59,854 bases of DNA, taken from IMG/VR virus record IMGVR_UViG_3300020352_000627, positions 1 to 59,854 of that record; one strand, 5' to 3'. Positions 1 through 46,399 of the stretch are shown piece by piece. How positions within the stretch are numbered: the first letter of the stretch is position 1; each line of letters begins with the position of its first letter. A program made the position numbers and the translations under genes. The notes beneath the pieces were generated by a model. That model saw only the letters and a program-made list of their open reading frames with translations, did no database searches and was not told where the DNA came from. This DNA comes from a virus (taxonomy: Duplodnaviria > Caudoviricetes).

Positions 1-20
1 GGTATAACTTTAGTTGTCAA
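1..20 (-). promoter_or_regulatory. Truncated nested sigma70/sigma28-like promoter
   Basis: Minus strand reads TTGACA-A-CTAAAGTT-ATACC into the window edge, the same layout as the promoter at 1969-2006. Confidence 0.6.
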
Positions 21-60
21 TAGATAAAATTTAAAATATTTTCCGGCGGGCCGGGTCGTG

Positions 61-89
61 TGTAAGTTGTTTGCTAGGAAGGGTTTACG
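61..89. repeat. 11-7-11 quasi-palindrome, copy 1
   Basis: TGTAAGTTGTT-TGCTAGG-AAGGGTTTACG, preceded by GC patch CCGGCGGGCCGGG; right arm identical to copy 2. Confidence 0.7.
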
Positions 90-513
90 TCAACAATACA
101 TATCGTTTCTTATTACCTCCCATTGTTTCCAGCTTTGAGATTTTATGTCGAAAAAATAACGCTGCTTTCCCTTGTATATGTCTGCTGCTTAGATGGTGAT
201 TCATTTCCTCGAATGATATTTTATCTTTACCCTCTACCATCTGATTCCATATAACATCTTTCTGCTCTGATGTAACATACTTAGGATTCATAGGAGTAGC
301 AGTCATACTCTTCATTTTTTGTTCAATTTGTTTCTCTAGAAACTCTGGCGATAGGTCACTCATAATATCAGAGTACTGTTCTTTTATATCCTTTACTCTC
401 TGCTCATATCGTTGGTACTGCTCTATTATCAGTCGATTCTGTATTAGTACTTCTGCCATATCTCTGCACATATCATCTAATGCTGTCAATCTTGTTTCAA
501 AATCCATGATCAT
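85..513 (-). CDS. Hypothetical protein, coiled-coil N-terminus
   Basis: 142-aa ORF with ATGA overlap to the upstream gene. Confidence 0.75.
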   Translation of the reverse strand: MIMDFETRLTALDDMCRDMAEVLIQNRLIIEQYQRYEQRVKDIKEQYSDIMSDLSPEFLEKQIEQKMKSMTATPMNPKYVTSEQKDVIWNQMVEGKDKISFEEMNHHLSSRHIQGKAALFFRHKISKLETMGGNKKRYVLLT

Positions 514-806
514 TCTCCAAATGGTGATGTTTCTGTTTCTGTAAGTGTAGCATATCTTTCAGCCAATGCAACTATTCTTTCCTCACTTCCTGGCTTTCCT
601 ACAGGATTAATCATATTGTCCTTACTGCTAAGATACCTATCATTTACCTTAGCCTGTTCACTCCTTACAATTTCCCGCATAGCTTTCCTATTGAACTTAT
701 GAAGGTTTCCATTCTGCTCAATTCCTTCCCATATCTGTGTGCATTCATCCCAAGCCGCCGATAGGATAGGGTACTGTCTCATTAGCTGTTCTGTGTTACT
801 TGGCAT
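510..806 (-). CDS. Hypothetical protein with PGSEERIxxLxxRY motif
   Basis: Start moved to the ATG at 806 (MPSNTEQ), overlapping the upstream stop; C-terminal motif recalls small Planctomycete PGSxEKxxxLxxR proteins. Confidence 0.65.
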   Translation of the reverse strand: MPSNTEQLMRQYPILSAAWDECTQIWEGIEQNGNLHKFNRKAMREIVRSEQAKVNDRYLSSKDNMINPVGKPGSEERIVALAERYATLTETETSPFGE

Positions 807-1149
807 TATAGCTGTAATCTCCTGTGTCATAGTTTCTAATCTCTTGTAGTCTATCAGCAATTTCAAAATGGTCAAGCCATCCAAATACTTCTACCGCACC
901 ATGTCGCTTGTGTATAGGATGACTCTCTAATACTTTGTACGACATATTAGGATCGGTACCGTGTTTATGCTCTATAATCCAGACTTCAAAGTAGCCGCTA
1001 TTCCCGCCATAACTTTGATCATGATTTGACACAATAGCGCCAAGACCATTAGAGAAAAAATAACGCTTAACATAACGACCTTTCTCCTTCATATATTTGG
1101 AATCAAAATATGTTTCATTTAGTTTTAGTGGGTTTACTTTAGTTTTCAT
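796..1149 (-). CDS. Hypothetical phage protein
   Basis: 117-aa ORF with F-x-NG-x-GA and SYGG-x-x-G-x-FEV motifs typical of small phage early proteins. Confidence 0.75.
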   Translation of the reverse strand: MKTKVNPLKLNETYFDSKYMKEKGRYVKRYFFSNGLGAIVSNHDQSYGGNSGYFEVWIIEHKHGTDPNMSYKVLESHPIHKRHGAVEVFGWLDHFEIADRLQEIRNYDTGDYSYNAK

Positions 1150-1154
1150 TTGTT

Positions 1155-1352
1155 TTATTCCTCAATAATGATCTCGACTAGTTCTACATATCCCAACATT
1201 TTAATCTTGTTAGGAACATATTGCAAGGCTTCTAATTCGCTTCTTGCTGTTACCTTTCCGTGAGCCTGAGAGTCTCCTGTTTCGGCATTAGATGTCCATA
1301 CCCTCCATTCTTTTAATCCTGACTTGTGCCGTATTGGTGTTCCACTTCTCAT
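1155..1352 (-). CDS. Hypothetical protein (65 aa)
   Basis: AAGGAG Shine-Dalgarno before the ATG at 1352 (MRSGTP). Confidence 0.65.
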   Translation of the reverse strand: MRSGTPIRHKSGLKEWRVWTSNAETGDSQAHGKVTARSELEALQYVPNKIKMLGYVELVEIIIEE

Positions 1353-1362
1353 TTTTTTCTCC

Positions 1363-1926
1363 TTATTTGAGTGATAGTCTAACATTTTTCTTGTTTATGT
1401 CAAGCATAATTTCCCGACCAAATTCTTTACAGTGTCGATAGTTTTCAGGGAAAACAATAATTTTTCCGTTGATGGCATTTGATCCCCATAAGTCTACAAA
1501 CTTTTTAGCCTCTGCACCTCCTACCTTAATAACTGTTTTATCATAATCTACGAACACAAAAACAATCATATCAAATAATTCGGTTTTTATTGCATTGAAA
1601 GCATACTTCTTGCTTCTAGTTCCGTCTGCTCTTGCTGTTGTGTTGAGTCCAACCGTTGATGTTTTTACTTCTACACGTTTCCAGCTTTGCCCTATTTTTA
1701 CCTTTAGGTCACAAGAATCAACGCCGCTTAGTAATTTTACCTTGAATCCTAAATCCTCTAATTGTTCCATCACAACGTATTCGCCCATACGTCCAATAGC
1801 TTTAGAATCTCCGGCTTCAACAATTTGCCTTGATGCCTCGTCTGTGTATGCTTGTGTTTTGATCTTGTCATTTTTGTATCGTGCTACTGCTCGGTTACAA
1901 ACTTCTGCTTTTACTTTAGTCGCCAT
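1363..1926 (-). CDS. PD-(D/E)XK endonuclease
   Basis: GxxGE helix, then CDL and VEVKTS catalytic motif. Confidence 0.75.
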   Translation of the reverse strand: MATKVKAEVCNRAVARYKNDKIKTQAYTDEASRQIVEAGDSKAIGRMGEYVVMEQLEDLGFKVKLLSGVDSCDLKVKIGQSWKRVEVKTSTVGLNTTARADGTRSKKYAFNAIKTELFDMIVFVFVDYDKTVIKVGGAEAKKFVDLWGSNAINGKIIVFPENYRHCKEFGREIMLDINKKNVRLSLK

Positions 1927-1968
1927 TGTTTTATTCCTGTTTAGTGTGTGTGAAATCGTCTGGTAATT

Positions 1969-2006
1969 ATATCGGTAATTTTATACTGTGAACTTTAGCT
2001 TGTCAA
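1969..2006 (-). promoter_or_regulatory. Nested sigma70 + sigma28-like promoter
   Basis: TTGACA-N17-TAAAAT (2006-1978) overlapping TAAA-N17-ACCGATAT (1997-1969). Confidence 0.7.
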
Positions 2007-2013
2007 GAGTTAT

Positions 2014-2127
2014 TTATTCTGAAACCTCCTCTTTGATAACTTCGCAATGCTCACCGCAAGCAGTGCAAATATCTTCAAGAACAACATCGGAACCACAGCA
2101 ATCTGAAGTGATAATTAAGTTTAACAT
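2014..2127 (-). CDS. 37-aa Cys-rich putative Zn-binding miniprotein (not in ORF track)
   Basis: MLNLIITSDCCGSDVVLEDICTACGEHCEVIKEEVSE; paralog of 2894-3079 with a similar leader. Confidence 0.75.
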   Translation of the reverse strand: MLNLIITSDCCGSDVVLEDICTACGEHCEVIKEEVSE

Positions 2128-2166
2128 TTTCTTTTCTTTCTATTATTGTTTACTTGTTATATCCTA

Positions 2167-2207
2167 AGTATATATATAGTATCGGAATTTGTCAAGCACT
2201 AATTTAG
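2167..2207 (-). promoter_or_regulatory. Nested sigma70 + sigma28-like promoter with upstream A-tracts
   Basis: TTGACA-N17-TATACT (2195-2167) interleaved with CTAAA-N16-TCCGATAC (2207-2179). Confidence 0.8.
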
Positions 2208-2231
2208 AAATATTTTTATTTTTTTTCTGTG

Positions 2232-2247
2232 TGCAAATATCATGCCA
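2232..2247 (-). promoter_or_regulatory. sigma54-type -24/-12 site
   Basis: TGGCATGATATTTGCA, GG-N10-GC spacing. Confidence 0.65.
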
Positions 2248-2263
2248 TAAATTTTTTTTCTTT

Positions 2264-2279
2264 TGGCACAGCATTTGCT
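2264..2279 (+). promoter_or_regulatory. sigma54-type -24/-12 site
   Basis: TGGCACAGCATTTGCT, GG-N10-GC spacing. Confidence 0.65.
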
Positions 2280-2324
2280 ACTGTTAAGATAGGTAACATA
2301 GGTAACCCGGCCCGGCGGATTGCT

Positions 2325-2353
2325 CCTAAGTCCTTTACTGGTAAGGGTTTACG
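2325..2353. repeat. 11-7-11 quasi-palindrome, copy 2
   Basis: CCTAAGTCCTT-TACTGGT-AAGGGTTTACG, preceded by GC patch CCGGCCCGGCGG. Confidence 0.7.
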
Positions 2354-2601
2354 CTTACTTTATTGCCCCATCGTTTCATCGCATCTACTGTACATGCGTG
2401 AAGGTTATTGTCAAATTTAAATATACCTCCTACCGTTTCAATACTCTCTGTTGCCCAACCCTTACCATCATTCATGTCTTCTCTGTAATAACACATCTCC
2501 TTTCCTTTATAAGTATACATATCTACAACTTTCCTACGCCATCCATGCCCCTTCTTTCTTTCCCATACACTTCCGGTTTCTACTGTAATTATTTTTCTCA
2601 T
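2335..2601 (-). CDS. Hypothetical protein
   Basis: 88-aa ORF with ATGA coupling to the upstream peptide gene. Confidence 0.7.
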   Translation of the reverse strand: MRKIITVETGSVWERKKGHGWRRKVVDMYTYKGKEMCYYREDMNDGKGWATESIETVGGIFKFDNNLHACTVDAMKRWGNKVSVNPYQ

Positions 2602-2681
2602 TTGTATTCCCTAAAAACAAAATTACCAAATAGACAAGCAAACATTATTACGTACATCATACCCAATAACCATTCCGGCAT
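2598..2681 (-). CDS. 27-aa single-TM peptide (not in ORF track)
   Basis: MPEWLLGMMYVIMFACLFGNFVFREYK; GAGGAGG SD, TGATG overlap upstream, ATGA overlap downstream. Confidence 0.65.
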   Translation of the reverse strand: MPEWLLGMMYVIMFACLFGNFVFREYK

Positions 2682-2839
2682 CAGCATACCTCCTCAACAT
2701 CTGAATAAATTTCATCAAACAAATCTACTCCGGTTACTTCGCACCAATCAAGCGGATGGGCGTTGATATCGTCGCAAGGTTCTACCACACCTTCATTTTC
2801 TAGGGCGGCAATTAACAGCTGAGTATTTATATCTAGCAT
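2681..2839 (-). CDS. 52-aa acidic hypothetical protein (not in ORF track)
   Basis: MLDINTQLLIAALENEGVVEPCDDINAHPLDWCEVTGVDLFDEIYSDVEEVC; GGAG SD. Confidence 0.65.
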   Translation of the reverse strand: MLDINTQLLIAALENEGVVEPCDDINAHPLDWCEVTGVDLFDEIYSDVEEVC

Positions 2840-2893
2840 CTCAATTTCTCCGTGGTAAGTGTATCAAAAGTGTACCAAATTTTATTATCCACA

Positions 2894-3079
2894 TCAACTG
2901 CAAAAATAATCTAATCCCTGAGCAGCGTGAACAGCTTCGGAACAATCGTAGTCGATACGATCTTCGATTACTTCACAATGTTCTAAACATTCTGGGCAGA
3001 TGTCCTGATCTGAATGGCAAGGGTATCCGCAGCAATCGGTGGAATAAGTTATTTCGAAATTTTTTGAAGTGTTTAACAT
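2894..3079 (-). CDS. Cys-rich putative Zn-binding miniprotein
   Basis: DCCG...DICPECLEHCEVI; paralog of 2014-2127. Confidence 0.75.
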   Translation of the reverse strand: MLNTSKNFEITYSTDCCGYPCHSDQDICPECLEHCEVIEDRIDYDCSEAVHAAQGLDYFCS

Positions 3080-3117
3080 TTTTAATTCTTTCTAATTTGT
3101 TTACTTGTTATATTTCA

Positions 3118-3157
3118 AGTATATATACTTATTCGGAAAAGTCAAGGGGTAATCTTA
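3118..3157 (-). promoter_or_regulatory. Nested sigma70 + degenerate sigma28-like promoter
   Basis: TTGACT-N16-TATACT (3145-3118) with TAAG-N16-TCCGAATA; leader ATATAACAAGTAAACAA shared with the 2167 promoter. Confidence 0.7.
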
Positions 3158-3165
3158 AAAAATTT

Positions 3166-3321
3166 TTATTTTTTTTCGTAGATTGTATCGAGATAAATTT
3201 CGCTATCTGTTACAACCCACCCATATTCACACGTGCTAGTATATGTACCTATGTACAGTTTACCATTGTCGTATCCTTCGTATCCTACAAACATACTTAA
3301 TAGTGTGGCGATTGTCAACAT
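3166..3321 (-). CDS. 51-aa hypothetical protein (not in ORF track)
   Basis: MLTIATLLSMFVGYEGYDNGKLYIGTYTSTCEYGWVVTDSEIYLDTIYEKK; GGAG SD. Confidence 0.65.
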   Translation of the reverse strand: MLTIATLLSMFVGYEGYDNGKLYIGTYTSTCEYGWVVTDSEIYLDTIYEKK

Positions 3322-3356
3322 TGTATTTCTCCGTGTGTTATTGTTACCTATATATA

Positions 3357-3384
3357 ATATCGGCTTGTCCAGGCGGAAACTTTA
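3357..3384 (-). promoter_or_regulatory. sigma28 (FliA/SigD)-like promoter
   Basis: TAAAGTTT-N12-GCCGATAT, near consensus. Confidence 0.75.
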
Positions 3385-3445
3385 CAACAAAATAGATTTT
3401 TTCTCGTATACCCCTCAAAAGAACTAGCCGGGGGGTTGGAAAACA

Positions 3446-3474
3446 TGTAAGTACTGTCCTATCAAGCACTTATG
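3446..3474. repeat. 11-7-11 quasi-palindrome, copy 3
   Basis: TGTAAGTACTG-TCCTATC-AAGCACTTATG, preceded by GCCGGGGGG. Confidence 0.55.
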
Positions 3475-3605
3475 GTAGGGGGGTTTTTATAAACGCAAGA
3501 TAAACAGGGTATTGGTATGAAAAATCGCGGGGTGGTACATACACAATAGGCGCCACCATATATAATTGGCCAGTTTATTAGCCAGTTACTATTTATGTTT
3601 TATTT

Positions 3606-3632
3606 TCATCGACGACATACCGAGATGCTTTA
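3606..3632 (-). promoter_or_regulatory. Possible sigma28-like promoter
   Basis: TAAA-N15-GTCGATGA. Confidence 0.4.
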
Positions 3633-3650
3633 ATTCTATTGATTTTATTC

Positions 3651-3656
3651 GGTGTA
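3651..3656 (+). promoter_or_regulatory. RGTGTA late-promoter-like motif
   Basis: GGTGTA plus AT-rich tract about 50 nt before the ATG at 3703; recurs before seven other rightward operons. Confidence 0.6.
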
Positions 3657-3702
3657 TTTACTTTTGTAACTAGATTTTATTAACAATTATAAGAAACAAA
3701 CA

Positions 3703-4545
3703 ATGGCAGATACAAGCAACGCATATTCCTCAGAAGGCTTTAATAGACAGAAGCAGTTTTCTGGTTTAGATGCTAGAAAACCTGAAAATCTAGAGATATA
3801 TTATGACACTAATGATTACTATACAGATCCTCAGTACGTTAGTATTCTTAGAACTTTTGTTGACACAGTAGGATTCAATTATCCCAAAGAAAGTTCTGTG
3901 GTTTTTCCAGCGCCTGAGCATGCAGAAGGACTTAGAGCTTCTGGAGTACCTGTTTTTCAAATCTACGACAACTCTATTAGCATCGATAACGCAGGATCGT
4001 CTTACGAAATATATGATTCATTTAATATATTATCGGATAATCAAGAAATAGGATACGTTGTTGTTAGTGAAACAGGCGTAGGCGGATCTATTTCAGGCCT
4101 AGGAGCAAGTAGCTCTCAAGTATATGCTTCGTCTCTTAATAATCTTTCTATTGTCTCGAACACAGACAATCAGTCTGCACAACTATCTGTCAACAACAAT
4201 TTTTCTATAACAGCAATTACTATGACATCTCCAGGCTTGGGATACCAAACAGTAAGTAGTACCACAGCAACTCCCATATCTCATAATGTTGTTTTATATC
4301 CTTTTGCTGCCACAGAACACACTAGTCAAAACACTACTGATTTTTTAGATTATTTTGATAATTTACTTGACAATAATATTGATCATACTGCTGCTGTTAT
4401 TAGAGAAAGCAAAGATCCGTTCATACAATATACCGAAATAGATCTTTCAGATTCTATAAGAGAGTGTGTACTCAATGATATTAATAAAGTAAACCATTTA
4501 GGATTACACGATTACACAATTGTTCAAAACTTTTCCCTTGGTTAA
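3703..4545 (+). CDS. Hypothetical, possibly virion-associated protein
   Basis: 280 aa; I-x-I-xx-x-G-x-x-Y beta repeats (ISIDNAGSSY, ITMTSPGLGY) as in phage structural proteins. Confidence 0.65.
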   Translation: MADTSNAYSSEGFNRQKQFSGLDARKPENLEIYYDTNDYYTDPQYVSILRTFVDTVGFNYPKESSVVFPAPEHAEGLRASGVPVFQIYDNSISIDNAGSSYEIYDSFNILSDNQEIGYVVVSETGVGGSISGLGASSSQVYASSLNNLSIVSNTDNQSAQLSVNNNFSITAITMTSPGLGYQTVSSTTATPISHNVVLYPFAATEHTSQNTTDFLDYFDNLLDNNIDHTAAVIRESKDPFIQYTEIDLSDSIRECVLNDINKVNHLGLHDYTIVQNFSLG

Positions 4546-4563
4546 CAATCACAGGAGCTAGCA

Positions 4564-5865
4564 ATGCCCCAACAACCACCATCAGTAAAAGGCCCATTTT
4601 TTCCCACATTCCCTCCTCCCGACACAACCAATACTGGCAATCCTTCTTCAGGAGGTCTTGCCCATCTTTTTTGTTCTTGGACTGAAGAAGTCGAAGTCTG
4701 CGAAACAGGAGTAGCCCAATGTGCTGGAACTTGGTCAGCTGCTAGTAGCGCCGGAGGATCAAGCGGCGGCTCACTAAGTAATGGTTCTTGTGACATTAAT
4801 GTATCTTTTGATTTAGCTTGTGATACTCCTCAAGCTATTAATGTAACAGCTAATTGTTCAGATGGCACAACCGTTGTATTAGATGAATACTATTGGCCAG
4901 GAAAACCAACTAATAGTAGTGAAGGCCAATATTATGTAGTTTGTCAATGTGACACCTCCGAATGCTCGGAAGAAGGAGGACTAGGATCAGATTACTGTGA
5001 TCAATTTGAGAGTGGTCCTTATGCTACTGAGGCTGAAGCCATCGCAGCTGTGCCATCCTATGATGGAACGTGCAGTTGTACAGCCACAACAACACCATGT
5101 AGTGACACAGCATATAACAAGACGTTCACAAATGTATGTGAAACAGCTCCTCCTGTAAATTGCAGAATGGTAGAGATACCAGGTAGTTGGTCAGACATGA
5201 TACCTCTGACTGCTTCATGTGGGTGGACTGTTCTTGCTGGAGCATCTGAGGTAGACAAAAATATATTTTTTGCGAAAGTAGCACAACACCTCATAAACAA
5301 TAACCCAGGTTTAGTGCAAATTATACGAATACACTTGAAGGTAGGCTTATCTGCGAGTGACACTAGTGCTGTCATGCAATTCTTAAAGTTGATGAAAACA
5401 ACAAGTGGATCGAAGTGTCTTTTGCAACCACCACCAAATTTCTCCGATAGTTCTGTTCTTAGAGCCATATCAGATGCTGTTGCTAAACATCTAAATCAAA
5501 TGGGAAAAGGAGCCCCAAAACCACCAACTGGAGGCGGCATAAATTTTGGTCTTCCTGTGATGATCATCATGCCAACACTAGATATGTTACACGAAAAACT
5601 TAACGAACAAATGAATCAATTTAATAGTTTCGACGACGTTAAGTGCGCTATGAATGTAAATCCTGGAGGAGGCGGTATAGGAACAACTGTCGGACCAGGT
5701 AATCCAGGTTTATCTTTACCTTTAAATAGTGTTGTTAAATCTTCATCTTCTGGATCAAGTTTAAATCAATCAACAAAAAACAACATTTTACTACATATAA
5801 ATAACGGATTCCCAGCACTAAATGGAAGACTATCACTCAAGACACCCAAAGCAGAATATCTATGA
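4564..5865 (+). CDS. Cys/Ser/Gly-rich hypothetical protein
   Basis: 433-aa ORF with many Cys in the N-terminal half. Confidence 0.7.
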   Translation: MPQQPPSVKGPFFPTFPPPDTTNTGNPSSGGLAHLFCSWTEEVEVCETGVAQCAGTWSAASSAGGSSGGSLSNGSCDINVSFDLACDTPQAINVTANCSDGTTVVLDEYYWPGKPTNSSEGQYYVVCQCDTSECSEEGGLGSDYCDQFESGPYATEAEAIAAVPSYDGTCSCTATTTPCSDTAYNKTFTNVCETAPPVNCRMVEIPGSWSDMIPLTASCGWTVLAGASEVDKNIFFAKVAQHLINNNPGLVQIIRIHLKVGLSASDTSAVMQFLKLMKTTSGSKCLLQPPPNFSDSSVLRAISDAVAKHLNQMGKGAPKPPTGGGINFGLPVMIIMPTLDMLHEKLNEQMNQFNSFDDVKCAMNVNPGGGGIGTTVGPGNPGLSLPLNSVVKSSSSGSSLNQSTKNNILLHINNGFPALNGRLSLKTPKAEYL

Positions 5866-6230
5866 ATAACTCTTACTATATAAAAATAAACCATAGCATT
5901 CAATATACGGCTAGAAAATCTACGCAAACAATATCAGTAAATTCTACAGCCCCACATAGAACCTTCCAACAAAATAATACCATGGTTATGGGTCCCAAAC
6001 AAATTATTACTCCTGTTGATATCGAAGAATACATAAGAAATTCTAGAAGAATAGTACCTAATAGTATAGATGAAGCAGTAAAAGGAGCTAGACCTGGAGT
6101 ACACTACTTATTACAAAAATCTTTTTATCCTGAACCTACGCCTACTTCCCAAAATACCAGACAAGGAATAGTAGTCACAGATAATAATATAAACTTTCAG
6201 CCTGGACAAAAAGGACTATTATCTTCATAG
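5862..6230 (+). CDS. Hypothetical protein
   Basis: 122-aa ORF with ATGA overlap. Confidence 0.65.
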   Translation: MNNSYYIKINHSIQYTARKSTQTISVNSTAPHRTFQQNNTMVMGPKQIITPVDIEEYIRNSRRIVPNSIDEAVKGARPGVHYLLQKSFYPEPTPTSQNTRQGIVVTDNNINFQPGQKGLLSS

Positions 6231-6242
6231 GTCTTATATGAT

Positions 6243-6668
6243 CTATGATTGATACATATGCGCCCCATGATGCTCGAACCCTAAGGAGCTATAAAAAGGA
6301 ATCAAGTATTCTTCGCAGTTAAGCTTTACCTTGTAGCAGTTATTATCTTTCGCGCCCTTAATACAATGTTCTACAATTTGCTTTCCGTAGCCTTTGCCTC
6401 TGTCTTCTAATCTTGTAGCAACATCTTCTATATGACAGCACATCTTATTATATCTTAATTTAACTTCCAATACTATTGTAGCTGTAGCTACTACACGATC
6501 TTCTTCTATTCCTAAATACGTAATTATATTTCTTCTACGCGCTACAGCATCTCTTACAGCTTCAACATTCTGCACAACACAATCTGAATTATTTAAAACG
6601 CTAATACATTCCATGTATCCTTTTATATAATTTTCATCTGTGTCTTTGTTAAGTATAATTATATTCAT
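6243..6668 (-). CDS. Glucosamine-6-phosphate N-acetyltransferase (GNA1-type GNAT)
   Basis: HIEDV, RGKGYG acetyl-CoA loop, CYKxxLxC and FYxxxGF motifs; coupled to glmS. Confidence 0.8.
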   Translation of the reverse strand: MNIIILNKDTDENYIKGYMECISVLNNSDCVVQNVEAVRDAVARRRNIITYLGIEEDRVVATATIVLEVKLRYNKMCCHIEDVATRLEDRGKGYGKQIVEHCIKGAKDNNCYKVKLNCEEYLIPFYSSLGFEHHGAHMYQS

Positions 6669-8482
6669 TCAACAGTAACACTCTTTGCTAAATTTCTTGG
6701 TTTGTCAACATTACATCCTCGACCTTCCGCACAATGCAAAGCGAATAGCTGTAATGGAACTAAAGACATAAATGGAGTAATTATGTCATCGCATGACGGA
6801 ACCTTTATATTATACTTTCCTATATTATCATCATTGTCGTGATTCAATATAGCTATAATCTGACCGCCCCTAGATTCTATCTCCATCTTATTATTTAAAA
6901 TCTTATTATATTCTTTACTATGGTTCGCTATTACTACTACAGGCATCTTATTATCAACTAAAGCTATAGGCCCATGTTTCATTTCTGCTGCCGGATATCC
7001 TTCAGCGTGTATATAAGATATCTCTTTTAACTTTAAAGCGCCCTCTAGAGCTATTGGAAAGTTATAACCCCTACCTAAAAACAAACAATTCTTTTTATTA
7101 TAAAACCTTTCAGCCAACCCTCTTAATTCTGCACAATCTTTAATAGCTTCTGTCATTAGTATGGGTAAATCTTTTATACTATCTATAACCTTTTTTCTTT
7201 TACGTAAATCTGTATGATTCGTAGTTTGATCTATCATTAGAGCTAATAACAATAATGATAAACATTGATTTGTAAAAGCTTTGGTACTAGCAACTCCTAC
7301 TTCTATACCGCATCGTGTATAAATTCCACACTCTGTCATCTTACTTATTTGTGAATTAATAGTATTACAAATTCCTATCGTAATAGCACCTTTTTCTTTT
7401 GCTAATCTCAAAGCAGCAATAGTATCTGCTGTTTCTCCTGACTGAGATATGCCTATTACAATATCTCCGTTTTCAATGACAGGATCTCGATATCTAAACT
7501 CACTTGCATATTCTACATTTATTCCTACTCCTGCTAACTCTTCTATATAATACTTACCCAATAAACCAGCATGCCAACTAGAACCACAACCTAAAAGTGT
7601 AATCCTTCTAGCTCTAATAAACATTTTCTTATTATCAAAACCGCCCAGTTTAATCTTATAGCCATCTATTCTGCCTAACAAACATTCACTAATAGCCTTT
7701 GGCTGCTCATGTACTTCTTTTAACATAAAACTAGAATAATTTTCTTTAGTAATTTCATATGCGTGATTATATACTTTTTCTAGATTGCATTGTGTAACAT
7801 CCTTAACATTACTATCATAGTGTTCTATCTTGTCTTTTTGTATCTTGGTTATATAACCATCCTCTAGAGAGATAATATTATGAGTATCTTTATTAAATGC
7901 ACTTACATCGCTGGCTATATAATAGTTATTGTCTTGTACCCCTATACACAAGCTACTTCCTTTCTTGGCACATACTAATGTATCAGGGTTTTGTTGATCT
8001 AATAGGATAAAAGCATATGCCCCTACTACTTTTTCTGTAGCTATCTTTACAGTATTAAATAAGTCCCCCACACCTTGAAGCACATCATATATTAGATATA
8101 GCAATATTTCAGAATCCGTATCTGAATTAATTGTATATTTGTCTCCCAAACTATCCTTTATTTCTTTATAGTTTTCTATGATTCCATTATGAACCAAAGC
8201 TAGGGAGTTATTATATGTTACATGAGGATGAGCATTTCTTTTACAGGCTTTACCATGCGTAGCCCACCTAGTATGACCTATTCCTATATTTCCGGTATAT
8301 TTCTTAGAAACATCCAAATCTTCTATACTACCACTTTGTTTGAATGTTTTTATCTGACCGTCTTTTTTATTTATAAAGGATATACCTGCGCTATCATACC
8401 CTCTATATTCTAATCTTTTTAAACCTTCTATTAAAAAAGGTACAGCGTTGTCTTTTCCTAAATAACCTACTATTCCACACAT
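6665..8482 (-). CDS. glmS: Glutamine--fructose-6-phosphate aminotransferase
   Basis: MCGIVG, LEYRGYDSAG, GHTRWATHG, SQSGETADT, C-terminal PRNLAKSVTVE. Confidence 0.98.
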   Translation of the reverse strand: MCGIVGYLGKDNAVPFLIEGLKRLEYRGYDSAGISFINKKDGQIKTFKQSGSIEDLDVSKKYTGNIGIGHTRWATHGKACKRNAHPHVTYNNSLALVHNGIIENYKEIKDSLGDKYTINSDTDSEILLYLIYDVLQGVGDLFNTVKIATEKVVGAYAFILLDQQNPDTLVCAKKGSSLCIGVQDNNYYIASDVSAFNKDTHNIISLEDGYITKIQKDKIEHYDSNVKDVTQCNLEKVYNHAYEITKENYSSFMLKEVHEQPKAISECLLGRIDGYKIKLGGFDNKKMFIRARRITLLGCGSSWHAGLLGKYYIEELAGVGINVEYASEFRYRDPVIENGDIVIGISQSGETADTIAALRLAKEKGAITIGICNTINSQISKMTECGIYTRCGIEVGVASTKAFTNQCLSLLLLALMIDQTTNHTDLRKRKKVIDSIKDLPILMTEAIKDCAELRGLAERFYNKKNCLFLGRGYNFPIALEGALKLKEISYIHAEGYPAAEMKHGPIALVDNKMPVVVIANHSKEYNKILNNKMEIESRGGQIIAILNHDNDDNIGKYNIKVPSCDDIITPFMSLVPLQLFALHCAEGRGCNVDKPRNLAKSVTVE

Positions 8483-8550
8483 ATCTGTCGATTGTTCCTC
8501 TAATCTTTCGTGTCATATACTCTGCATCGACGACTTAGCTTGCAAACTAT

Positions 8551-8802
8551 TTATGGATCTAGATTAGGATTGTTTTGGCTTGTAGGTATTCCCTGACTGT
8601 CTGAAATAGCAATAAACTGCTTTCTTCTGCCTTTTGGCTTAACAATCCCTAATTTTCTTCTTTGTCTCCTAATCATACTTGTAGTAACATTACTATTAGA
8701 CATTTGGGTTAATTTACCTGCTAGTTCTACATCGCTCATAGAATCCTTATTTTGCTTAATGAACTCCAACTCAGAATTTTGCCATTTTTTATAAGTGGCC
8801 AT
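8551..8802 (-). CDS. Small helix-turn-helix DNA-binding protein
   Basis: KKW-xxx-E-xx-FI...ELA...RRKLGI pattern. Confidence 0.65.
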   Translation of the reverse strand: MATYKKWQNSELEFIKQNKDSMSDVELAGKLTQMSNSNVTTSMIRRQRRKLGIVKPKGRRKQFIAISDSQGIPTSQNNPNLDP

Positions 8803-8829: not shown

Positions 8830-8860
8830 TTGACTACTTTAAGTTACATGTTACTATAAT
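8830..8860 (+). promoter_or_regulatory. sigma70-like promoter upstream of the phage sigma operon
   Basis: TTGACT-N16-TACTAT with extended -10 TG; overlapping TATAAT. Confidence 0.55.
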
Positions 8861-14908: not shown

Positions 14909-14910
14909 TT

Positions 14911-14949
14911 AGTGTATTAGATATTAATCCCATTACAATCCCATTACAA
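14911..14949 (+). promoter_or_regulatory. RGTGTA motif plus 11-bp tandem repeat in the portal leader
   Basis: AGTGTA at 14911; AATCCCATTAC x2 at 14926-14947. Confidence 0.55.
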
Positions 14950-14959
14950 AAGCAATACG

Positions 14960-20343: not shown

Positions 20344-20371
20344 TTTCTGGCGATATCTTTATCACTAATAG

Positions 20372-20402
20372 AAAGCCGCCTCTCGCTGGGGCGGCTTTTT
20401 TT
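20372..20402 (+). terminator. Rho-independent terminator
   Basis: AAAGCCGCC...GGCGGCTTT followed by a T run. Confidence 0.9.
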
Positions 20403-20484
20403 ATTAAATTATTGCGGTAGAAGTATAAGTATACTAAGGTGTATACTATTATATCCACAGGCCTTTTGATGAAAGATATGCCAT

Positions 20485-21174: not shown

Positions 21175-24100
21175 ATGCCGGTTAATACAAGACTTCAAAT
21201 CAGAAGAGGCACTCACTCCGAATGGGTAGTTGCCAACCCTGTTTTGCATTATGGTGAGATGGCTTGGGAAAGTGATACTGGTAGGATTAAGATAGGTCTT
21301 ACGGGAGATCTAAATTGGCAGGCTATACCTTATTCTTTTGCAACTCTACAAGATCCTTCTAATGCAGGTTCTTTAAATAGTTTTTTAAGTGAATCTGGAA
21401 TTTCGCTTACTGGAGTTACGGGTGTCTATGGGCATGTTACAGGGATACAGATAGATAGTAAATTATCTCCAGGTACAGATATAGGCTTATCTACTGACGG
21501 AAACGGCTCTATAGTTATTAGTTATACGGGGGATGCCAGCTTAAATTTCCAAGATAGAGAACAAGTAGAAACTATCCAAGATATTGTAGGTAGTGGAAAT
21601 CATACTTCTACAGGATTTATTCGACAGGTTTCTGGTATAAATATAGTTTATGACGATAATGGCTCTAATGGAAGTGGTACTCTTACTTTCGCTTTAAATG
21701 AATTAGTTGGTGAGAGTGGTGTTGTTACTAGCTACAATAATGATTCTTGGAAAATAGCTACTAATTTAACATCTGGTAGTGGTATTGAAATAACAGATGT
21801 TGCAGGATCCAAGAGAATTACTGCTACAGGTCTTGCTCTTGAAAGTCATAATCATGATATTAACGATATAAATGGATTTAGTTCTGTAGATGTAACACAC
21901 AATAGTGTTAGTGGTATTAATAATTTAATCGCTAGTGGAACTGGTATTTTTGATGTATTAGAAATTAATGGCTCAAACGGGTTTGTTTTTCCTAATACGG
22001 ATGGAAATGATGATCAGATATTGGTTACAGACGGCAGCGGCGTTGTGTCTTGGCAAGACCAGCCATTAAATCATCCTGTTATAGATAACGCTCTTGGGAA
22101 TACAAGTAATAGTGGCAGAGATTATGTTCAGAATATATCTTTTGACCAATATGGTCATGTTACAGGAATTTCTCTTGGTACAGAGACTGTTGTAGACCAT
22201 TCTGTTACTGGTGTTGTTTTTAATAGTGGTAATAATGATCTGGTTTTACATAAGAGTGACGGGGTTAGCATAACAGGTAATTTATCAGGAGTTTTAGTTT
22301 CTGGTACTTCCTATCATTCAAATATATCTAATGCAGCAAATGATTCAATTAATAATAACAGAAATTATGTACAGAGTATATTACTAGATGAATATGGGCA
22401 CATAACGGGAATTATAGAGACAGCGCAAGAAACTGGGGTTGAAAGATATTATCCTGGTACAGGACTTAGTGTAAACACTACAACACAAACTTTTCATATT
22501 ACAGGAGTAGCTACAGATTTATTACAAGGAAGTATACAAAATAGCCAATTAGCTAATTCTGGTATTACTGTTAGTGGAGGTATAGGTTTACAAAATGGTG
22601 GATTTGCAGCTCTGGGAGAGACTGTTACCTTAGACGTAGATAATTCTGTGGTAGTTACAGGCAATACTTATCAATATCCTCCTTGGTTAACAGGTATAAA
22701 TGCTGATATTATCACTGCTGGCATTATTGCTGCTGATAGACTTCCTTCTTATGTTGATGATGTCATAGAAACAGGAACATTCAGCCAGCTACCTGTTGCT
22801 GGTACTGGAGGCAAGATATATGTAACTCTAGATACTAATTTTATATATAGGTGGGGAGGATCTTCATATGTACAGATTAAAGATGGAGATAATAATTATG
22901 CAACAGGATTGATATGGGATTCTGGTGCTGGTAATTTATCCATACAAATGTTTGGAAAACCTGATATAACAGAAAATTTAGACGGAAGATATTTACAATC
23001 TTTTACAGAAACTGATCCTACAGTTAGTGGATATATTAAAGCAATAACAACACAACAAATAGATAACTGGGATTTATCTTATTCTACATTAGAATCAGCT
23101 TCTGGAAACTGGAATATATCATACTCTTGGGTTACTGGGAATAGTGGATTAGTTGTATCTAGTGGAGATAATATTAGTCTCCTGATGAATGATTCAGGAT
23201 ATGCTACCACAGGAGAGCTAGTTTCTACTTCTGGCCACTTACAGACTCAGATCGATAGTTTGCCTGATGATAATACTTTTATTAGTAGTATTAATTATAG
23301 CACTACAGAAAGAAATTTGGTAGTTACAAGAAATGATGGAGTTCTCTTTACCGGCAATCTTAATATTGTAATGCATAGTGGAGATAATGTAAGTTTTCTG
23401 GTGAATGATTCAGGATATGCTACCACAGGAGAATTGATTTCTACTTCTGGGCATTTACAGACTCAAATAGATACCCTGCCTGATAGCGATACTTTTGTCA
23501 CAGGCATAGTTTATAATTCAGCTACTCATCAATTAGTATTAGATAGGAATATTGGGTCTGTTACAGGTATTTTAGACAATATTATTCATAGTGGTGATAA
23601 TGTAAGTCTTTTGACTAACGACGCAAACTATATAGATGGTTCTGGCATAAATAACTTTATCCCTGTATTTAGCGGTATTGATACTATTACGAATAGCATT
23701 ATACATCAAAGTGGAGATCGCATTGGTATCGGCACAAGTTCTCCAACAGAAAAACTAGATATTAGAGATGGAGATATTTTAGTAGGGACTAAATTACTCA
23801 TTGGTAGTGGAATATATAGTCAAACTTCACCTGGAGCTTATTTCGGATTAAAACATACAGAGCTCACAGACCCATCCGAATATATGATCATGAGCGATGG
23901 CACTCACACTTATCTTAGCGCTAAAGAAGATAGTGATGTTATTATTAGAGGCGGTGGGAATAAAGTTGATCATCAAATTGTTGTTACTGAAAGTGGTATC
24001 ACTCTTGGTAAATACAGACCTGCAGCTAGTAGTGTAGATGCAGAACATGATGTTGAGCTTGTGTATGATGATGGTGGTTGTGTCAGAATTGCTGATCGTG

Positions 24101-27100
24101 GTGGTAGTGGAATTATGTTGGGTGATTGTGCATTAAATGCTAATAATACATATGCAGGTATCAAGCATACTGACATGATGGGCGATGATGATTATATGAT
24201 AGTCAGCGATGGTACAGATACCTATATTAGTGCTAAAGATACTGGTTCTGTTTATTTACGTCCCGGTGGTAATGCCGGAGAAGGTGGAATAAAAATATCA
24301 GACGTTGGTGCTGGAGGTGTTTCAACTGTATTTAATGATGCTGGTGCTAATAGAGATATTAGAATGGCAGGCACTGGTGACCTTAATCTCTTTAGGCTTG
24401 ATGCTGATGAGGATAGAATTGGTATAGGAACACATGCACCAGCTTATAAGTTAGATGTATCTGGTACTTTTAGTGCAGATAGTATAAATGTTAATAATCA
24501 GTATACATTACCTACTGGAGATGGACTTACTGGTCACAGTTTAGTTACAGACGGTGCAGGAAATATTATATTCAGTGGAGTTTCTGCTGCTGGTGGAGAC
24601 GGTAGTGTTAATACTATTTATAGTAATGGTGTTCAGGTTGGTGATGATGATATTGAAATATTAGATTTCTCTAGTAATTTTTCTGTAAGTGAAAATCCAA
24701 ATGCCAAGATGAATATTGGTCTGTCCGATATGATTACTGTTAGTGGTCTTACTATCAGTGGACTAGATCCTACAGGTTATACTTTCCCTGCCTCTGATGG
24801 TTTTAATCGTCAAGTATTAGCTACAGACGGTAGTGGAATTGTTTATTGGAGTGGCATTAGTGATATAATGTCTGGTTTTAGTGACTATGAAATAGTGTCA
24901 TCAGCAAAAAGTAGTTTTATCGTTAATGGTGGTTTTACTGTTGGTAGTTTAGATGTGTATTATAATGGTCTAAAATTACTCAATGGTGATGATTATGTAG
25001 AGGTTGATGGAACTGGATTTACACTATCCTCTGCTGCTACTTTTAATGATGTTATAGAATGGGAAGGCCATAGAACAGCTCCTGAATATGTTACATTGGG
25101 CAATCCTGGAAATAATAGATTAGTTACTTCTGACGGATCTTCTACCACAATTAATGGTCAATCTGATTTAATTTTTGATGGTACTGGTTTAGGTCTAGGT
25201 ACTACTTCTCCATCTCCTTCTGGTGGCGAAAATTCTCTACATATACACTCTAACATATATCCAGAAATTAAACTTACTAATAATGCTACAAACAGTACTT
25301 CTTCTGATGGCGTGTCAATACTAATAGAGAATAACAAAAATTTCAGAATAATTAATTCAGAAGAAAGTTTAACAGAATTTTATAACGCTAAAGCAAATGG
25401 CTCGCTTGTAGAAACCTTAAGACTTGGAGCTACTCAATCAATATTTAACTCTGCTGGTGATGAGAATCTAGACTTTTTAGTAAGTGGTAGTGGTTCATCT
25501 AATTTAATCTTTGCAGATTCTTCTACTAATAGAGTAGGCATAGGAAATAATAGTCCTACTACTAAGCTTGATGTTTCTGGCGTTATTACTGCTAGTGGTG
25601 GAGATTCTACAGAATGGAATACTTCTTATAGTACCCTTGTTGCTAGATCCGGCTTTTGGAATCTGGCATATGATACCGTTCAAAATAAGTCTGCTAGTTG
25701 GGATAGTTCTTATGTGTGGATAACTGGAAATAGTGGTAATCTTGTATATACCAATCAAACATACGAAAATCCTTCTTGGTTGACTTCAATTAATCCAAAT
25801 ATTATAAGTGGAGAAATTCCTGAAAACAAGATTCCTGCTTCGTTCAATGATGTTCTTGAATATGCTAGCACAGGTAATTTCCCTGGCTCTGCTGCAAGCG
25901 GTATCGTTTATATTGCTCAAGATACAAATAAAATATATAGAGGGAGTGGCAGTGCATATATAGAGATTAGTAGCGATACTAATGATTTTGTGAATGCAGC
26001 TACTTTTAATACTACTGACGGAACTCTTCTTTTAACCAGGATTTCTTCAACTGCTGTAACAACTAATTTAGATGGCAGATATACAACAGGATCTGGTACG
26101 GCCAATTATCTTGCTAAATGGACTTCAAGTAAAAACATATCAAGTGGAATTATTTATGATGATGGGACTAATATTGGTATAGGAACGGCTTCTCCTAATT
26201 ATAAATTAGATGTTGCGGGTAGTGGTAGTTTTAATAGTTTAAATATCAATGACGCATTTACTTTTCCAACTAGTGACGGTACGGAAGGTCAATCTCTTGT
26301 TAGTGATGGTGCTGGTACTGTGGTCTGGTCAGGCATAGACACAGATACTAATAACTATGTGACCGGTGTGGCTTTTGATACTGCCACAGAAGTTTTAACT
26401 CTTAATAGATTAGATTTGTCTGATCTTACAACCTCTTCATTTAGTGGAGTATACCTTAAAGAACTTTCACAAGATCCTTCTCCTCAGCTAGGAGGTGATT
26501 TAGATCTTAGTGGTAACGATATAACTGGAAATGGCAGTATTAATATTGGTGGAGATTTGACTACAAATGGAAATAATGTAGATATTGGTAGTACAGCATA
26601 TGGTTTACAGGTATCAAGTTCTGCTGCAACTTTAGCTTCTAATAGACTTCAGATTCTGGGTAGTGAAACTGTATTTAATCAAGCAGGATCAACTGCTGAT
26701 TTTAGGGTAGAGGGAACAGGTCAGAGTCATCTACTATTTATAGATTCTTCTAAAGACAGTGTTGGTATAGCTACTGAATATCCTACATCTAAACTTACTA
26801 TTGGTAGTGGTTATCTCGATGGTGGTGGAATATGTGTAGATATGGAAGGTGTTAATCAGCCATCATTTACAGCTAGAAGAGAAAATGGAGATCCTGTATT
26901 TTCAATTTTATCATATACTAGTCAAGTCTATATGTCTGTTGGAGTTTACTACAATGGAAGTCAATGGGTTCATTCTAGTGACAATTCTAATAGCTCAATA
27001 TTTACAATAGATCCTCCTAATGGAGTATTATGGTATTCTAGTAATAGCGCTTCTAGTATTAGTAACGTAGCTAACGCAGTAAACTTATGGGACGCTCAAG

Positions 27101-34206: not shown

Positions 34207-34250
34207 TAGTGTAAATACTTTTATAAAAGAACCTAATTAAGAGAAATAAA

Positions 34251-37200: not shown

Positions 37201-38093
37201 AGCCTAAAAGCGCTGAACTTAGAGTGCAAAGAATTCTCTCTGACAGAATTTATTTTGAATGGGATGAGCTTGGTTATAGTGATGATGATAGGGGTAATGA
37301 TACTATTTCTAATTATTCTCATGAATTGTACTATGTGACTAGTGAGGAAGAATATCAATTATTAACAACAATCGCTGGAACAAACACTGTTGGGCCAGGA
37401 GTTGAAACACTACTTATAGATATAGATAATGTTTTTGGTAGTAATTATGCACTTCCTCCTAGTTTAAAAAACAAATTTGTGTTAAGAACAAAAAATTCTT
37501 CGTTTCATACAGACAGCGTAGCTTATGCTACTACTAGTGCTTTGAGCAGAAATAAACTTATGGAATATTATCCTATGTATCGTGTTGTTTATGATAGATA
37601 TAGAGATAGGAGTAATGCTACACTTACAAAATCAAAACAAACTTTTTCCAAACCTCTTTTAACTGAAAAACAATATCGTAGTGTTATGGCATATGCTCCT
37701 AGTAGTCTGATTCAGATTCTTCAGGGCAGACCTATCTATGAGTATGTAACAAGATATACTTATGCATATATAGATGCATATAATGAACAAACTAGAACTC
37801 AAGCATATGCGGTTAGTCTTACAGGTCGTACTTCTACGACGCCAGAGAGCCCTGCCTATGCGCGTCGGATATATAGTACATCTAGTCGACTTAGAGAGCT
37901 AAAAGCGCTTGAAACAGACGAGAATAAAGACATATTATATACTATGAGATATAGCAGTTCTAATGTAATAGAGTTAGGATATCATAGCTTTGCTACTAAA
38001 ACTAGATATACTTTCACTAACGGAATAGATTACGATGTATCATTTGTTAAAGATGGGGATAATATTATGGCTATTTGGATAGAACAGGTATAA
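34251..38093 (+). CDS. Fibronectin type III repeat virion protein with N-terminal carbohydrate-binding-like domain
   Basis: NxxINGNFDIWQRG...ADRW; FN3 motifs W..P...GG..(V/I)..Y...Y.F..AA.N..G.G; AGTGTA at 34208. Confidence 0.8.
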   Translation: MSRIINYAKSLLNRKVDSKNIFINGNFDIWQRGVSFNSQGYTADRWFFSIFENEFDNQGATAFKCTTDGQLDNNTYGISLKNTVSGCYYSLMYVVPTEDVLSHQGEQMTLGFYAKTPDNSLAGNIYSSVSYTPHEDDPNEDKTLIATSVINSAITTGWKQYNSSFEVPSDARTLVFEIRPETTSGLAANSTLNISQAKLELGFIPTQLIPNPYNEELKKCEAFYQKTAYAQAIPPNTKQFTNSVKLNTKPRKPYSASVNIPRIKNKSRGILNISPYIKENALFINADSSNASTNNILLDSIIIDNEIYPEGVPSTPTDIYADDNLITSGIVVYWSASQDRNSKIREYNINYGLAKDNLIDNQSFTVNGEHIAGTAVSGSITGVDTSKIYYFNLAAINDVGESPYSTCMTTDAEGTPTTSGLSTYLPTVVPLSNKANVSWNYSFSPNTIPDKFIVDCDVVSSFDSSFFSRKIVEYELGDSLTTDIAYLNNNSGTFFYQIAPQIGSMTGIFVGSSLSRTTPGDIDNIITYSSNTSVSLYWSDPDSDGGYPVTGYALQYSSNSGTLSSSAVTHLSRQGINNSTNISSLNNDTEYFFRLAALNFAGTGNFSSTTAETPGRSPATCSAPTGVSLSWDSDLYLGSDIRSSRDLSEQRVYSSHSGYSNNKPTNIYSMATIQWSTPIDNGGQSIAYYNVLLDTTSSFNSSNLKSYNTNLFRTKKLKLINQLTSDTSTTWYAKCAAVNASGTGLYSNSASLSNTTPQILNVNGSEFKYNFNCKGLTNAELEHTYTVNDRGLTINSGISYTGVDCSSLIQYSVVACPTDENNTELTITGLEPGFTYSFGAAYSNASGNSTIVCSTGATPDSLSTNFNSDTITLGTIENNRDLTPFVTILVKRPTTSIGALNYSGVFYTGNPATYPGEPLYSGYFYRYGRSSYRDRVWHDSYGIEATLTGLSTELWLSTVACSKNSTTTYTSQPVNFNIWNALSKPKSAELRVQRILSDRIYFEWDELGYSDDDRGNDTISNYSHELYYVTSEEEYQLLTTIAGTNTVGPGVETLLIDIDNVFGSNYALPPSLKNKFVLRTKNSSFHTDSVAYATTSALSRNKLMEYYPMYRVVYDRYRDRSNATLTKSKQTFSKPLLTEKQYRSVMAYAPSSLIQILQGRPIYEYVTRYTYAYIDAYNEQTRTQAYAVSLTGRTSTTPESPAYARRIYSTSSRLRELKALETDENKDILYTMRYSSSNVIELGYHSFATKTRYTFTNGIDYDVSFVKDGDNIMAIWIEQV

Positions 38094-46396: not shown

Positions 46397-46399
46397 TTT

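Follow-up and report, generated by a model that had tools for sequence, protein, structure and literature searches.

Which RNA polymerase reads a phage promoter that seems to hold a second promoter within it? The question is raised by the left end of a 59,854-nt stretch of DNA, the IMG/VR virus record IMGVR_UViG_3300020352_000627 of an uncultured phage (classed as linear, estimated completeness ~40%), which we analysed at its full length and call the window. Region 1-3702 forms the right-hand end of a leftward gene cluster, whose members are small and for the most part unassignable, and an earlier note on this DNA had described, before these genes, promoters in which sigma-70-type hexamers are combined with TAAA and CCGA boxes like those of sigma-28, the sigma factor for flagella (FliA/SigD), and had taken them for early promoters open to two holoenzymes. 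Every site named in that note was found in its place, all on the minus strand, and comparison with relatives confirmed that the two-box observation is real and clade-wide, the clade being one of widespread large aquatic phages of 150-245 kb, marine and lake. From the sequence we infer that the boxes act as a promoter and which type of sigma factor would read them; that the cluster is early is likewise presumed, from gene size, orientation and promoter type.

Relatives were retrieved via a sigma-like protein encoded in the window (sigma-A), which gave 168 homologues in viral contigs, of which 80 loci were kept; together with the window they make 81 sequences and 1.31 Mb, on which the distance counts were made. 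The start-to-start distance from TAAAG to CGATA peaked sharply at two neighbouring values, 22 nt (73 raw pair counts) and 23 nt (68), with 7 pairs at 21 nt and a background of about 3 (0-9), and two scrambled control words gave no peak at 22-23 nt. The earlier note had staked its proposal on a fixed spacing between TAAA and CCGAT, and the spacing is indeed sharply fixed across the relatives, where the two boxes co-occur; its word CCGAT caught a real box but was drawn too narrowly, the conserved core being CGATA(A/T) after a G and one variable base. Measured from the -35 hexamer, TTGAC to TAAAG peaked at 8 nt and TTGAC to CGATA at 9-11 and 30-31 nt. Since the -35 hexamer is retained and CGATA occupies two positions relative to it, a MotA-like activator box, which had been named as a fallback, is disfavoured; in T4 middle promoters the MotA box, at a fixed position of about -30, replaces the -35 hexamer, whereas TTGACA is kept here. 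After removal of near-duplicates, 83 of the 84 sites of the form TAAAG-N17/18-CGATA lay on the strand of the leftward genes, and the non-redundant sites fell into 48 of class A, 19 of class B (both defined below) and 17 others. Four complete relatives (224-244 kb, three with terminal repeats) carried the exact pattern 10/0, 0/10, 10/1 and 0/13 times in forward/reverse orientation, against 0-1 for the reversed control pattern. With only ~10-13 exact sites per complete genome, titration of host sigma factors by the island, also suggested before, is implausible.

Coupling of the two boxes was apparent when the search was seeded by sigma-70-type boxes alone, which returned 262 non-redundant hits in the clade; all but 8 of them, 254 in number, were on the strand of the genes. 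These 254 promoters comprised 57 with CGATA at most 9 nt after the -10 hexamer (class A), 81 with CGATA among the spacer's first 11 nt (class B) and 116 with neither, so that the motif is carried by 138/254, about half. An exact TAAAG stood in the spacer of 33/57 class A promoters, 0/81 of class B and 1/116 of the remainder (Fisher 7e-19), and within 20 nt upstream of the -35 hexamer in 16/81 of class B, 1/57 of class A and 5/116 of the remainder (8e-4). This coupling in both registers indicates that TAAAG and CGATA are one unit with a constant internal distance. In class A the order is TTGACA, TAAAG, TAtAAT, CGATA, each sigma-28-like box following its sigma-70 counterpart (P1 and P2 of the window), while in class B it is TAAAG, TTGACA, CGATA, TAtAAT, each sigma-28-like box preceding its counterpart (P3, P4 and P5); the registers differ by ~21 bp, and they are the two arrangements in which a pair of bipartite promoters can interleave with no overlap of boxes. 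The clade consensus is (T)CTAAAG(T/A)TT, 12-13 nt, G-n-CGATA(A/T), with cTAAAGtTT as the class A form and GtCGATAT/A as the form of the -10-like box. Position profiles showed largely variable bases between conserved boxes, in phages whose sigma-A proteins are about 54-65% identical, and this combination points to selection rather than recent copying.

The pair also occurs by itself. Five non-redundant stand-alone sites (L043, L054, L057, L061 and L066) have a good TAAAG..TGTCGATA and no sigma-70 boxes, and lie 50-60 nt upstream of the start codon of a small gene with a signal-peptide-like start; in these relatives the sites are followed by AAACTGGyCAATT, as is the window site at 3632. In the complete relative G001 (237,915 bp), 38 of 47 sigma-70-type hits are on one strand within 133.8-191.1 kb, a stretch of small genes, and all 13 [T/C]AAAG-N17/18-CGATA sites are in that stretch on the same strand; in the remaining ~180 kb of this genome the two-box motif is absent, and so is the sigma-70-type cluster signal. 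Beyond the early stretch another word, GGTGTAT, is enriched in plus-strand spacers of G001 (5 spacers vs 0.12 expected), and (A/G)GTGTA(T/A) is shared by late spacers of the window at 14909-14959, 20344-20484, 34207-34250, 38811-38871, 42670-42745 and 46397-46483; we regard it as a candidate promoter word of a phage sigma factor. The sigma factor of phiEco32 uses a single-element promoter, TAATGTATA, which this word resembles, and that of phage 7-11 uses TGATGT, according to PMC4331800. With these ECF-like (extracytoplasmic function) sigma factors the clade shares a small sigma of its own, sigma-A, and a GTGTAT-type word in its non-early spacers; that word differs from the two-box motif, and it bears on the reader of the latter only indirectly.

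Within the window, the five promoters named P1 to P5, a stand-alone site and two sigma-70-type promoters lacking the second motif are listed with the surrounding genes in Table 1. P1 is truncated by the window end; its copy in a close relative, L002 (92-96% identical to the window), is complete, TTGACA-N17-TATAAT-GTCGATAT, with 12/12 sigma-70 matches and 23 nt from TAAAG to CGATA. P4 is a paralogue of P3, the leader ATATAACAAGTAAAC being common to both, and because the pair goes back to a single cassette, copied with its leader and gene, we counted them once. Their genes encode paralogous Cys-rich mini-proteins of 37 and 61 aa with several CxxC-type pairs each, and the unit of duplication comprises promoter, leader and Cys-rich gene copied together. 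The start-to-start distances from TAAA(G) to CGA were 23, 22, 22, 22 and 21 nt (sites 1997, 2206, 3157, 3384 and 3632). A generic promoter scan ranked 2195 and 2006 first (11/12), with 3145 and 1403 in the next rows (10/12); P5, the best sigma-28-like site, was absent from its list. Counted in the window alone, the sigma-70 pattern of the earlier note had 3 matches vs 0.75 expected (at least 3 in 5/100 shuffles), its TAAA..CCGA pattern 6 vs 3.1 (at least 6 in 20/200 shuffles) and the strict TAAAGTT-N12-16-CGAT 2 vs 0.20 (at least 2 in 2/200 shuffles). What distinguishes the window sites is that all fall in spacers upstream of leftward open reading frames (ORFs); in the window by itself the two-box motif does not reach significance and has modest support, and the decisive support is comparative. 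Thirteen RNA runs, from marine metatranscriptome or oligo-dT studies, contain part of the region, and in the four that were compared with the window two loose ends show variant strains, with ..TGTATAATGCCGATATAC at P1 (position 6) and TTGACAATGCCGATAATG upstream of 3161, the same two designs.

Table 1. Promoter sites, genes and conserved non-coding features of the window (match counts refer to the two sigma-70 hexamers).
Feature	Positions	Strand	Sigma-70-type boxes	Second motif or content	Downstream ORF or context
P1, class A design	1-20	-	TTGACA then ACTAAAGTTATACC; cut by the window end	ACTAAAGTT.. after TTGACA; CTAAAGTT at 12; 20-1 reads TTGACAACTAAAGTTATACC	
Promoter without second motif	1376-1403	-	TTGACA-N16-TAGACT, TG before -10; 10/12	No CGATA or TAAAG nearby	76-aa ORF 1155-1385
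P2, class A	1966-2006	-	TTGACA 2006-2001, 17 nt, TAAAAT 1983-1978; 11/12	TAAAGTTC 1997-1990 within the spacer; ACCGATAT 1976-1969 abutting the -10	187-aa ORF 1363-1926
P3, class B	2167-2207	-	TTGACA 2195-2190, 17 nt, TATACT 2172-2167; 11/12	TCTAAAT upstream of the -35 (TAAA at 2206); CCGATAC 2185-2179 in the spacer; -10-like box of sigma-28 type TCCGATAC 2186-2179	37-aa Cys-rich ORF 2014-2127
P4, degenerate class B	3118-3157	-	TTGACT 3145-3140, 16 nt, TATACT 3123-3118; 10/12	TAAG from 3157 (TTTAAG); CCGAAT 3136-3131 in the spacer; TCCGAATA 3137-3130	61-aa Cys-rich ORF 2894-3079
P5, best sigma-28-like site	3357-3384	-	Weak: TGGACA, 15 nt, TAGGTA	TAAAGTTT 3384-3377, 12 nt, GCCGATAT 3364-3357; conserved in L002	First ORF of the leftward operon, 3166-3321, ~35 nt downstream
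Stand-alone sigma-28-like site	3606-3632	-	None	TAAAG 3632-3628, 16 nt, CGATGA; GTCGATGA 3613-3606; canonical spacing	Adjoins the conserved non-coding element on its upstream side
Promoter with extended -10	8830-8857	+	TTGACT-N16-TACTAT, TG present	No second motif	Small ORF and sigma-A gene
Ten small ORFs (cluster)	85-3321	leftward		9/10 without family match at the thresholds used	
142-aa ORF	85-513	leftward		Dynactin_p22, sub-threshold only	
187-aa ORF	1363-1926	leftward		phrog_5018 (E 2e-8) and weak restriction-endonuclease-like domain	
Trio of genes	3703-6230	rightward			
GNAT/GlmS block	6243-8802	leftward			
Long gene array	from 9011	rightward		First gene sigma-like, then sugar dehydratase, ERCC4 nuclease, large terminase, portal, capsid-decoration and tail-fibre-like proteins; last an open giant ORF	
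Sigma-A, 257 aa	9011-9784	+		Region-2 fold, Cys-rich insert, helical C-terminal domain	
Conserved non-coding element	3520-3596 (wider 3445-3591)	-			
Imperfect hairpin	2233-2279			GCAAAT..TGCCA / TGGCA..ATTTGC, A/T run	Between a GC-rich palindrome and P3
Palindromic and repeated words	43-55 / 2306-2318; 79-89 / 2343-2353			CCGGCGGGCCGGG, CCCGGCCCGGCGG and repeated AAGGGTTTACG	3' ends of two leftward genes, directly ahead of the next promoter

Both boxes resemble those of known sigma-28 promoters. The Pseudomonas aeruginosa fliC promoter carries TCTAAAG, the -35 consensus, between -36 and -30, and GCCGATAA between -15 and -8, and the spacer length of sigma-28 promoters is described as not conserved (PMC12784957); the general sigma-28 consensus is TAAA-N15-CCGATAT, extended (G)CCGATAA, which places TAAAG and CGATA 20-21 nt apart, and the flagellin promoters of gut Lachnospiraceae of the Butyrivibrio type read TAAA-N16/17-MCGATAa, or 21-22 nt (PMC3720852). 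A -35 element of this kind (TAAA; TCTAAAG or TAAAGTTT) is present in the window at 3384, 1997, 3632 and 12, with weaker copies at 2206 (TCTAAAT) and 3157 (TTTAAG), and a -10 element (GCCGATAA or CCGATAT, CGA core) at 3364, 1976, 2186, 3137 and 3613. Compared with class 3 flagellar promoters, P5 agrees in both box words, their order and their orientation, and the clade keeps T/C ahead of TAAAG, the tail GTTT, and G at two bases before CGA. Unlike in sigma-28 promoters, that G is followed by T or A more often than by C, and the clade sites are nested in phage sigma-70 promoters rather than placed before motility genes, the likeness being one of sequence only.

The sigma-70 part follows a familiar plan, with TTGACA and TATAAT set before a gene on the same strand and 16-18 nt between them. 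The early promoters of T4, T5 and SPO1 are of the virulent-phage type read by the host primary sigma factor, and those of the clade share with them near-consensus TTGACA and TAtAAT hexamers separated by 16-17 nt, in many cases with TG ahead of the -10, and clustering on one strand before many small genes of unknown function; they differ in that about half bear the interleaved second bipartite motif. Promoters for two holoenzymes that overlap or stand in tandem are known, from T4 early and middle promoters on the same genes to bacterial sigma-70/alternative-sigma dual promoters. The proposal made here resembles these in opening a gene to two forms of RNA polymerase from near starts, and departs from them in that four boxes are interdigitated in a ~50-bp cassette, in two stereotyped registers, dozens per genome. 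In the titles and abstracts searched, neither phage promoters that sigma-28 reads nor a nested dual design in phages were described.

We propose that strong sigma-70 promoters of host type, such as usually mark the early genes of phages, would drive the leftward cluster, and that the co-oriented two-box element may be a second promoter, interleaved with the sigma-70 boxes in about half of them. The co-orientation, the fixed distance to the start codon, the stand-alone copies and the match of both boxes to a sigma consensus argue for such promoter-like behaviour. The reader would be RNA polymerase with a sigma-28-family subunit (FliA/SigD/WhiG-type), most probably the host's, so that each cassette would have two entry points, the second start lying, relative to that of sigma-70, ~8 nt downstream in class A and ~13 nt upstream in class B. 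Sigma-28 holoenzyme initiates about 7-8 nt beyond its -10 box. That a host FliA-type sigma-28 reads the second promoter is our leading reading, tentatively held; confinement of the motif to the early region and a separate word for other parts of the genome favour a host reader of this type, and the recognition helix of a phage sigma factor that differs from WhiG (see below) counts for it as well. The stronger version, in which the early promoters would be built for two host holoenzymes, sigma-70 and flagellar sigma-28, and transcripts from P5 and 3632 would depend on sigma-28 alone, we consider possible but somewhat doubtful. As for the dual-holoenzyme promoters of the earlier note, the nesting of sigma-28-like boxes in sigma-70-type promoters has held, its naming of host FliA as the reader is unsupported, and its account of a dimorphic host is speculation.

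Several points weigh against a host sigma-28 as the reader. The clade spacing of 22-23 nt (21-23 in the window) is 1-2 bp longer than the 21 nt of E. coli and Pseudomonas and 0-1 bp longer than that of the Lachnospiraceae type, as given in the sources above; the -35-like boxes of class B are degenerate (TCAAGA 12 times, TAAAGA 11 times); and the loose pattern TAAR..CGAWA is not enriched in the window (12 vs 9.5 expected). Two sigma-like proteins, sigma-A and sigma-B, are encoded within the clade itself, and just one non-early motif was found for the two. The searches for a host named none: in tblastn, large terminase (TerL) matched Bacillus and Microcystis phages at no more than 30% identity and sigma-A gave no hit, GlmS matched a mix of unrelated taxa at no more than 46%, and a DUF1501 protein had phage-clade homologues only, among the 120 matches listed. 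The four marine RNA runs that were compared are assembled contigs chosen with this region, show no start or end table and have depth unusable for ranking, and therefore say nothing on starts or levels.

The two phage proteins differ in what they retain of a sigma factor. Sigma-A of the window matched Pfam Sigma70_r2 with 20.8 bits (E 3.3e-4), below the cut-off of 24, while its counterparts in 3/4 complete relatives scored 24-26 bits, above the cut-off; it also matched the NCBIfam ECF superfamily (E 8e-5). Its predicted model (mean predicted local distance difference test score, pLDDT, 68) retrieved only sigma-factor entries in the top 31 Foldseek rows, none of them reaching E 0.001; over the ~70 residues of the sigma-2 domain, target TM-scores were 0.6-0.69 and root-mean-square deviations 2.1-2.7, with E 0.03-0.5. 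On this modelling and these profiles sigma-A has a predicted region 2 of the sigma-70 family. For region 4, Pfam and NCBIfam gave no hit and a PDB profile search with the sigma-A alignment was empty; the C-terminal domain, residues 190-249, is helical and confident in the predicted model. C128, C131, C145 and C154, between region 2 and the C-terminal helices, are invariant and possibly form a zinc ribbon, and the N-terminus is a variable lysine-rich tail. At L005:1096-1863 (also in L006 and L007) a homologue 82% identical to sigma-A has one in-frame stop, possibly a sequencing error, a pseudogene or recoding. Sigma-B (195-222 aa) was found in 4/4 complete relatives (L082:1144-1731 in G003 and L084:924-1592 in G001, in the latter ~46 kb beyond the early region) and is absent from the window, a fragment of ~40% of the genome. 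It matched Pfam Sigma70_r4 (E 4e-13 to 5e-12) and, above cut-off, the NCBIfam sigma-70 superfamily. Its top specific families were WhiG and FliA, weakly (E 1e-8 to 3e-7; PDB WhiG 3e-4) and barely above RpoD/RpoS, and neither phage sigma reached the FliA_WhiG cut-off of 189.6 bits, the best score being 33.8 bits. The recognition helix of sigma-B reads GVSREAVRQ, where the aligned WhiG has GVTESRVSQ, and its R-E..R-Q pattern is one that we take to be that of primary sigma factors. A serine of Pseudomonas sigma-28 contacts the -35 box, according to PMC12784957, and at the position of this serine sigma-B differs from WhiG.

It is unlikely, on our estimate, that one of these proteins, sigma-B or sigma-A, reads the second promoter, in which case early genes would still be transcribed after host sigma-70 had been displaced or reprogrammed, in a built-in hand-over from early to middle expression. 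In its favour, sigma-A, with its 168 homologues, was the route by which all relatives were retrieved, sigma-B is in every complete relative with WhiG and FliA as its best specific hits, and sigma-70-type hits stand just before the genes of both, so that early synthesis of both is possible. RNA polymerase domains were not detected in the 110 of 134 G001 ORFs of at least 140 aa that were scanned, the other 24 belonging to the structural region, and phage sigma factors must on this showing use the host core enzyme; the non-canonical spacing of 22-23 nt would also suit a sigma factor that is not the host's. Against this explanation, the motif is absent from the non-early ~180 kb, the part on which one would expect a phage sigma to act and where GGTGTAT leaves another word for it to read. 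The match of both boxes to sigma-28 would require convergence or inheritance, with a sigma-B helix that differs from WhiG; sigma-A has no recognisable region 4.2, and sigma-B is not in the window, which covers only ~40% of the genome.

If the boxes are not a promoter at all, they may be an asymmetric operator at which a phage or host DNA-binding regulator acts on early promoters, repressing from the class A position (~-27 to +1) and activating or repressing from the class B position (~-48 to -22). Protein p4 of phi29, which switches promoters by site position, is the model here. The ~21 bp between registers are two helical turns and would present the regulator on the same DNA face relative to RNA polymerase, the presence of the motif in 138/254 early promoters would suit differential regulation, and AAACTGGyCAATT, after the stand-alone sites and in the conserved element of Table 1, suggests protein-binding DNA. 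We consider an operator improbable: the half-sites are unrelated, forming no dyad and no direct repeat, as operators seldom do, the boxes agree with a known sigma consensus both in their words and in their order, the stand-alone copies have no sigma-70 boxes to regulate, and the 83/84 co-orientation with genes is what a promoter requires. Fainter still is the chance that there is no second reader and that the boxes refine sigma-70 promoters in a manner peculiar to the lineage, as UP-like upstream DNA, spacer, discriminator and initial transcribed sequence, spread by cassette duplication within the clade. Such a house style would be in keeping with P3 and P4 as plain duplicates including their leaders, with the T-rich, UP-element-like DNA around the upstream boxes of class B, and with the class A CGATAT, which overlaps the expected start and runs into a conserved purine-rich leader (ATATAAGAAG or ATATAACAAGTA) partly shared by class B. 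It is hard to reconcile with the coupling data: the mutual distance of the boxes is constant in two registers and also where sigma-70 boxes are missing, the boxes are conserved between variable bases across phages with divergent sigma-A, and a spacer TAAAG without CGATA after the -10 occurred in just 1/116.

Phage early transcription is usually ascribed to the host primary sigma factor alone, alternative or phage sigma factors coming in later, and sigma-28 is free only in cells with a completed flagellar basal body. Were the two host holoenzymes indeed the readers, the phage would read, or bet on, the motility state of its new host cell, a strategy especially fitting if it adsorbs to flagella. 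No other phage early programme tied to the flagellar regulon would have preceded it. The cassette itself packs four boxes of two specificities into ~50 bp in two registers and is repeated over dozens of promoters in many phages. Read by a second holoenzyme, it would tie the outcome of infection to host motility or provide a built-in hand-over to a phage sigma, and the identity of the reader would inform host range and the biology of an abundant uncultured phage group; even as an operator, the element would be the main regulatory word of the clade's early region.

The window has a GC content of ~36% and no tRNA genes, and the DNA of its positions 1-8000 gave zero matches to cultured phages. Membership in the 'moraphage' lineage, described in PMC12619734, was rejected, HSP70 and glutamine synthetase domains being found in 0/4 complete relatives. 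The full-length DUF1501 protein (L174:17866-19107 in G001; Pfam E 2e-103) is at least 78% identical to all 120 listed homologues, partly on contigs of 230-260 kb, a conservation unusual for a phage accessory gene. Among the large ORFs of the rightward array are one of 2,312 aa at 21175-28113, with a tail-fibre-like N-terminus, and one of 1,280 aa at 34251-38093; the giant ORF (>4,450 aa, 46484-59854) exits the window end, its last part consisting of threonine/alanine/lysine/proline repeats.

Nowhere else in the region is non-coding DNA as conserved as in the element upstream of the leftward operon. Its sequence runs TGGCTAATAAACTGGCCAATT, then ..CTATTGTnTnTGnACCACC and, ~40 nt on, GAAAAAACCCCC, and contains AAACTGGyCAATT. 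Across ~40 loci its identity is 73-97% (mostly 80-89%), against only ~60% for the sigma-A of those loci; probably it binds protein or serves as a promoter or operator specific to the phage. No Rfam-type RNA family reached the gathering threshold in the window, and none appeared at E up to 1 in 1-3800. A structured RNA at 3445-3591 was rejected, given one invariant hairpin of 6 pairs and 0 compensatory pairs in 18 sequences, as was, by eye, a sigma-54 reading of TGGCTAATAAACTGGC at 3584-3569, because its GG-to-GC spacing is off by one. The imperfect hairpin ahead of P3 is conserved (85-88%) in L018 and L032-L034 and may be a terminator or processing site. Words similar to the GC-rich palindromic ones of Table 1, GGGCCGGG..GACGTAAGT, recur in relatives and may be terminators or another protein site.

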